Positions 57,026-57,102 of a stretch of DNA of 64,000 nt are shown piece by piece. The stretch is from assembly GCF_013315695.1 (NCBI RefSeq), contig NZ_CP054353.1; one strand, written 5' to 3'. The stretch is from Escherichia coli (GTDB lineage: Bacteria; Pseudomonadota; Gammaproteobacteria; Enterobacterales; Enterobacteriaceae). Made by a program: the position numbers and the translations under genes. The stretch's first letter is position 1. Every line of letters starts with the position of its first letter. The notes beneath the pieces are model-generated. The model did not search any database. It had not been told where the DNA came from and saw nothing but the letters and a program-made list of their open reading frames with translations.

Positions 57026-57102
57026 TGGTTGCGGGGGCCGGATTTGAACCGACGACCTTCGGGTTATGAGCCCGACGAGCTACCAGGCTGCTCCACCCCG
57101 CG
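57026..57102 (-). tRNA. metY: initiator tRNA-fMet (metY locus), fMet1-type sequence (G46)
   Basis: Reverse complement CGCGGGGTGGAGCAGCCTGGTAGCTCGTCGGGCTCATAACCCGAAGGTCGTCGGTTCAAATCCGGCCCCCGCAACCA, 77 nt, CAT anticodon. Confidence 0.95.

Follow-up and report, generated by a model that had tools for sequence, protein, structure and literature searches.

In K strains of E. coli, the initiator tRNA exists as two species. metZ, metW and metV code for tRNA-fMet1, which carries m7G46, and metY encodes tRNA-fMet2, which has A46, whereas all four genes encode tRNA-fMet1 in E. coli B (PMC3017606, PMC8887418). That B and K-12 differ in this way has been on record since work from 1992, which is cited in PMC3017606. 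In a comparison of six common strains, K-12 is described as the sole departure from the "canonical G46" (2026 preprint, bioRxiv 10.64898/2026.04.16.719103). The two species can be resolved on native gels (PMC6265465). In K-12, metY supplies a minority of the initiator tRNA pool and its deletion causes no growth defect (PMC5393177, PMC6265465).

Here, we focus on the initiator tRNA gene in a 64,000-nt stretch of E. coli DNA (the window). ARAGORN detects a single tRNA-Met(CAT) at 57026..57102 on the minus strand, and the Rfam tRNA model RF00005 scores 61.4 bits at this site against a gathering score of 29. The 77-nt gene (CGCGGGGTGGAGCAGCCTGGTAGCTCGTCGGGCTCATAACCCGAAGGTCGTCGGTTCAAATCCGGCCCCCGCAACCA) has the anticodon CAU, an encoded CCA end and an fMet1-type sequence. 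Between argG and the rimP leader with rimP-nusA-infB, it is the only gene for an initiator tRNA. argG (57450..58793, plus strand, 447-aa ORF) is divergent from the tRNA gene. Just downstream on the minus strand lies the rimP leader (56837..56937; Rfam RF01770, 102 bits, gathering score 47), in which a terminator scan places two terminator-like hairpins (56904->56881 and 56856->56844). It is followed on the same strand by rimP (56367..56819 in the ORF list). This gene, with which the protein genes of the metY-rimP-nusA-infB operon begin, is collinear with the annotated rimP of K-12, REL606 and SMS-3-5. nusA (54852..56339, minus strand, 495-aa ORF) and infB, encoding IF2 (52155..54827, minus strand, 890-aa ORF), carry these names in the matched genomes. 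The annotated features beneath the match are rimP, tRNA-Met and argG, and the order of the locus is collinear with the annotated metY of MG1655 and Sakai. In contrast, metZWV of K-12 form a tandem three-gene operon that adjoins amiC at another chromosomal locus and does not lie upstream of rimP-nusA-infB. Because argG adjoins the gene and rimP-nusA-infB follows downstream, the locus is metY and not metZWV.

Two candidate promoter sites upstream of metY, both sigma-70-like and both called by their match to the consensus, are found on the minus strand. The first, TTTGCA-18-TAGAAT, lies directly upstream of the gene at 57118..57147 (57147->57118). The second, TTGACA-18-TATAAT, lies about 90 nt upstream at 57195..57224 (57224->57195) and matches the consensus at 12/12 positions.

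The predicted minimum-free-energy fold of metY is a cloverleaf with the anticodon CAU. Numbering positions after Sprinzl, with one extra base in the D loop (17a), the D stem contains A11:U24 (purine 11 : pyrimidine 24), which is a defining feature of initiator tRNA. Positions 1 and 72 (C1 x A72) do not form a Watson-Crick pair, and cmscan likewise marks the terminal pair as non-standard. The anticodon stem has three consecutive G:C pairs (29:41, 30:40 and 31:39), which play a defining role in initiator tRNA (PMC3017606). Thus, all hallmarks of a bacterial initiator tRNA that DNA can reveal are present in metY. Positions 44-48 read AGGTC, and position 46 is therefore G (57056; C on the plus strand). 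By this base, metY is of the fMet1 and not of the fMet2 isoform. G46 is an allele of one base in a gene that is well defined, so that the question of a chance match does not arise.

The closest described counterparts differ from this gene by a single base or not at all. Over 151 nt including flanks, metY of K-12 MG1655 is the same as the window except for A46 in place of G46. K-12 metY, which encodes tRNA-fMet2, occupies the same locus and operon and shares 76/77 tRNA bases with the gene in the window. The 77-nt genes metZ, metW and metV of K-12, which encode tRNA-fMet1, are 100% identical to it. In E. coli B (REL606/BL21), metY lies at the same position, between argG and rimP-nusA-infB, and the 77-nt gene of REL606 is identical to that of the window including G46. 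The flanks of REL606 metY differ from the window at 57011, 57191, 57209 and 57241. The initial annotation had taken this gene for a metY of the fMet1 type from a variable-loop string (CCCGAAGGTCGTCGG) that occurs once in the window, on the minus strand. ARAGORN, Rfam and the Sprinzl numbering agree on G46, and the locus context and the 151-nt comparison, in which K-12 differs only at this position, agree on the gene. Its statement that K-12 metY has A where metZWV have G is borne out by MG1655, and its statement that B carries only the fMet1 sequence agrees with REL606 and with the literature (PMC3017606).

How G46 and A46 are distributed was surveyed in 5,426 complete E. coli genomes with a short probe and three haplotypes of 91 nt each. 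Each 91-nt query spans the tRNA from position 13 onward and 26 nt of metY-specific 3' flank. The form found in the window (G46) has an exact match in 4,670 of 5,425 genomes. The REL606 form (G46 with a flank SNP) matches exactly in 312 genomes, among them BL21, REL606, C, Crooks and HS, and the K-12 form (A46) in 365; together, the three exact forms account for all but 78 of 5,425 genomes. A 30-mer specific for A46 likewise matches in 365 of the 5,426 genomes, at one place in each. G46 is thus common to about 93% of sequenced E. coli and is the norm of the species.

Among the 60 carriers of A46 that were listed out of 365, nearly all are K-12 derivatives, including MG1655, DH10B, MC4100, HB101, C600, XL1-Blue, EMG2 and Keio strains. 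Four carriers are labelled as natural (human gut, duck, chicken meat and oil palm); in the 14 kb around metY, their identity to MG1655 is 99.986-100%. Because of this near-identity (99.99-100%), they are K-12-type strains as well, possibly laboratory strains or recipients that were deposited as isolates. With 60 of 365 carriers listed and four checked in depth, a rare lineage outside K-12 that has A46 could conceivably exist.

G46 with identical flanks of 60 nt on either side is found in SMS-3-5, O157:H7 Sakai, BEN2908, O104:H4 and PCN033. All references outside group A that were compared have the exact form of the window (tRNA and 3' flank); we take these references to span groups B1, B2, E and F. 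Together with the paralogs metZ, metW and metV, which also have G46, the distribution within the species makes A46 the derived state by parsimony. G46 is most likely ancestral, and A46 would be a derived single-base change that is seen here only in K-12-type genomes. The opposite view, that G46 in this lineage is a separate and recent change with a function of its own, is very improbable. Nothing specific speaks for it, and the same tRNA and flanks are shared by representatives of five other lineages, the exact form is present in 4,670 genomes, and parsimony over the paralogs places the change at A46.

Ancestry from E. coli B is less probable still. The initial annotation had combined G46, the IS1 content and an intact agaVWEFA into a non-K-12 and possibly B-like background, which would make the strain a relative of REL606/BL21 and G46 a marker of B. 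The tRNA sequence of REL606 metY is indeed identical to that of the window, and the literature assigns only fMet1 to B (PMC3017606). As the norm of the species, however, G46 has no power to tell lineages apart; it is unfit as a pointer to B and excludes K-12 only. The core of the window is far from the near-identity to REL606/BL21 that membership in the B lineage would entail. In the 32.7 kb of shared core from rsmI to folP, identity of the window is 97.85% to REL606 and 97.84% to MG1655, against 99.48% between REL606 and MG1655 in the same region. The window is thus as distant from B as it is from K-12, at about four times the divergence between B and K-12.

The flanks of metY point the same way. 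The window lacks the C-to-T change 15 nt past the 3' end of the tRNA (57011), where REL606, BL21, C, Crooks and HS have T and which belongs to the form found in 312 genomes. It also lacks three upstream SNPs in the 630-bp spacer between rimP and argG that B and K-12 have in common (57191, 57209 and 57241). The four positions define haplotypes of the metY region, and the B-type haplotype, T at 57011 with the three upstream SNPs, is not that of the window. The three upstream SNPs lie in or beside the promoter-like element at 57195-57224. Gene content differs as well: the yraHIJK fimbrial operon (about 5 kb), which lies between agaI and rsmI in K-12 and REL606, is absent from the window. There, agaI is directly followed by rsmI (31235-31285), and yraHIJK is missing in the isolate AF3 too.

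AF3 (NZ_OZ547117.1), a blood isolate from the UK and the nearest sequenced genome, is among the best matches of the window, together with MSB1_4I and MS 21-1, and B strains are not among these. The last 24 kb of the window, which include metY, are 100% identical to all three. Where the first 50 kb are collinear, AF3 is 99.99% identical to the window. Unlike the window, AF3 has no IS1 at the position of 16003-16770 and its agaB is intact; the source of the window is therefore a close relative of AF3, not AF3 itself. The next tier of matches to the last 24 kb, at 99.1%, includes IMT16316 and ECONIH1, both presumably of ST648. We further compared 13.9 kb with a reference panel of one genome per group, picked from the matches listed. 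Identity to the window is 99.30% for SMS-3-5, 98.78% for PCN033, 98.50% for O104:H4, 98.46% for REL606, 98.43% for MG1655, 98.40% for Sakai and 98.38% for BEN2908. We assume the phylogroups to be F for SMS-3-5, E for Sakai, B2 for BEN2908, B1 for O104:H4 and A for REL606 and MG1655. In this region, the strain thus appears nearest to SMS-3-5 among the references and close to the ST648-like strains, with the reservation that recombination could make the region unrepresentative of the whole genome.

Hence, core identity, the haplotype of the locus and gene content rule out a B-like background for this region. At least here, identity, SNPs and gene content place the window in a lineage unrelated to B, which is the outcome that the initial annotation had named as speaking against its own suggestion. 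Its non-K-12 part stands, given that A46 is found only in K-12-type genomes; its B-like part falls with the 97.85% identity to REL606, the haplotype and the absence of yraHIJK. The two further cues are no more telling of B. The IS1 content is not diagnostic, as AF3 is itself rich in IS1 (a query that contains IS1 matches there at about 27 places). agaVWEFA is intact as stated, in uninterrupted ORFs, but this does no more than exclude K-12, in which agaW and agaA are annotated pseudogenes.

Least credible of all is a K-12 derivative in which A46 of metY was turned back to G, for instance through engineering or through gene conversion with metZWV as donor: position 46 is the sole difference within 151 nt around the tRNA, but the flanking divergence rules this out, with 704 mismatches to MG1655 over the 32.7 kb, three more intergenic SNPs between window and K-12, yraHIJK absent, and G46 and an intact agaVWEFA where K-12 has A46 and the agaW'-'agaA deletion with its pseudogenes.

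The feature is thus almost certainly the chromosomal metY of an E. coli that is neither K-12 nor B. It encodes a standard tRNA-fMet1 and is the first gene of metY-rimP-nusA-infB with argG divergent, and in this reading G46 is the species-wide state and A46 the derived one. What follows on its expression and function draws on the literature and on general knowledge of tRNA. The methyltransferase that forms m7G46 is TrmB, and C13-G22-m7G46 is a tertiary triple; A46 is not open to 7-methylation. C13, G22 and G46 are all present in metY. Transcription would start from promoters upstream of 57102, with or just ahead of rimP-nusA-infB, and the transcript would be processed to the 77-nt tRNA. G46 would then be methylated to m7G46, as expected from the literature on K-12 fMet1 (PMC3017606, PMC8887418), and m7G46 would complete the C13-G22-m7G46 triple in the mature tRNA. 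Because the gene is 100% identical to those of the characterized metZ/W/V product of K-12, the tRNA is expected to be charged with methionine, formylated by Fmt and brought to the ribosomal P site via IF2.

AF3 has four places with an initiator tRNA, none of them an A46 copy, as it is absent from the 365 genomes with A46. Because none of these four places has A46, the strain most likely has one initiator species only, like B; this view builds on the near-identical AF3, as metZWV are located beyond the window. The single species would then most likely be common to the strain and B by ancestral state and not by kinship.

For the window itself, metY in its commonest allelic form is a textbook gene of known biology, an ordinary finding that matters little. 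The wider distribution bears more on K-12. The textbook picture of two initiator species (fMet1 and fMet2) very probably reflects a mutation that is private to the K-12 clone. The 365 of 5,426 genomes with A46 would then all be of K-12 type, and practically all natural E. coli, the strain here included, would have one species. If so, any physiological role proposed for fMet2 would be specific to K-12. Caution seems warranted in generalizing the two initiator isoforms of K-12, as A46 appears limited to this clone among the roughly 5,400 complete genomes.

Several observations concern the remainder of the window. Four 167-aa ORFs might suggest four copies of IS1, but the window contains only two: the ORF at 39067-39570 is yhbS, and that at 53050-53553 is an antisense ORF within infB. 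The first IS1, 768 bp long, lies at 16003-16770 between garP and garD and is flanked by a 9-bp target duplication, TGTGGCAAT (15994-16002 and 16771-16779). Because AF3 lacks it while being 99.99% identical otherwise, it is a recent insertion. The segments 27866-28633 and 28632-28844 comprise the second IS1, which is located between kbaY and agaB without a target duplication, and what remains of agaB. AF3 has the same IS1 between kbaY and agaB, but there agaB is intact. In the window, about 300 bp of the AF3 sequence are missing beside this IS1, by which agaB has lost its first 88 codons and retains its last 70. This looks like an IS1-adjacent deletion that would inactivate the galactosamine PTS IIB subunit (agaB). 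agaV, agaW, agaE, agaF, agaA (nagA), agaS and kbaY are all uninterrupted ORFs at 21638-27729, whereas a deletion at the aga cluster of K-12 has left agaW and agaA as pseudogenes. From the reading frames, the branch for N-acetylgalactosamine looks intact, whereas the transporter specific for galactosamine looks broken. An ordinary tRNA-Leu(GAG) gene, leuU, lies at 60885-60971 on the minus strand, upstream of secG as in K-12.
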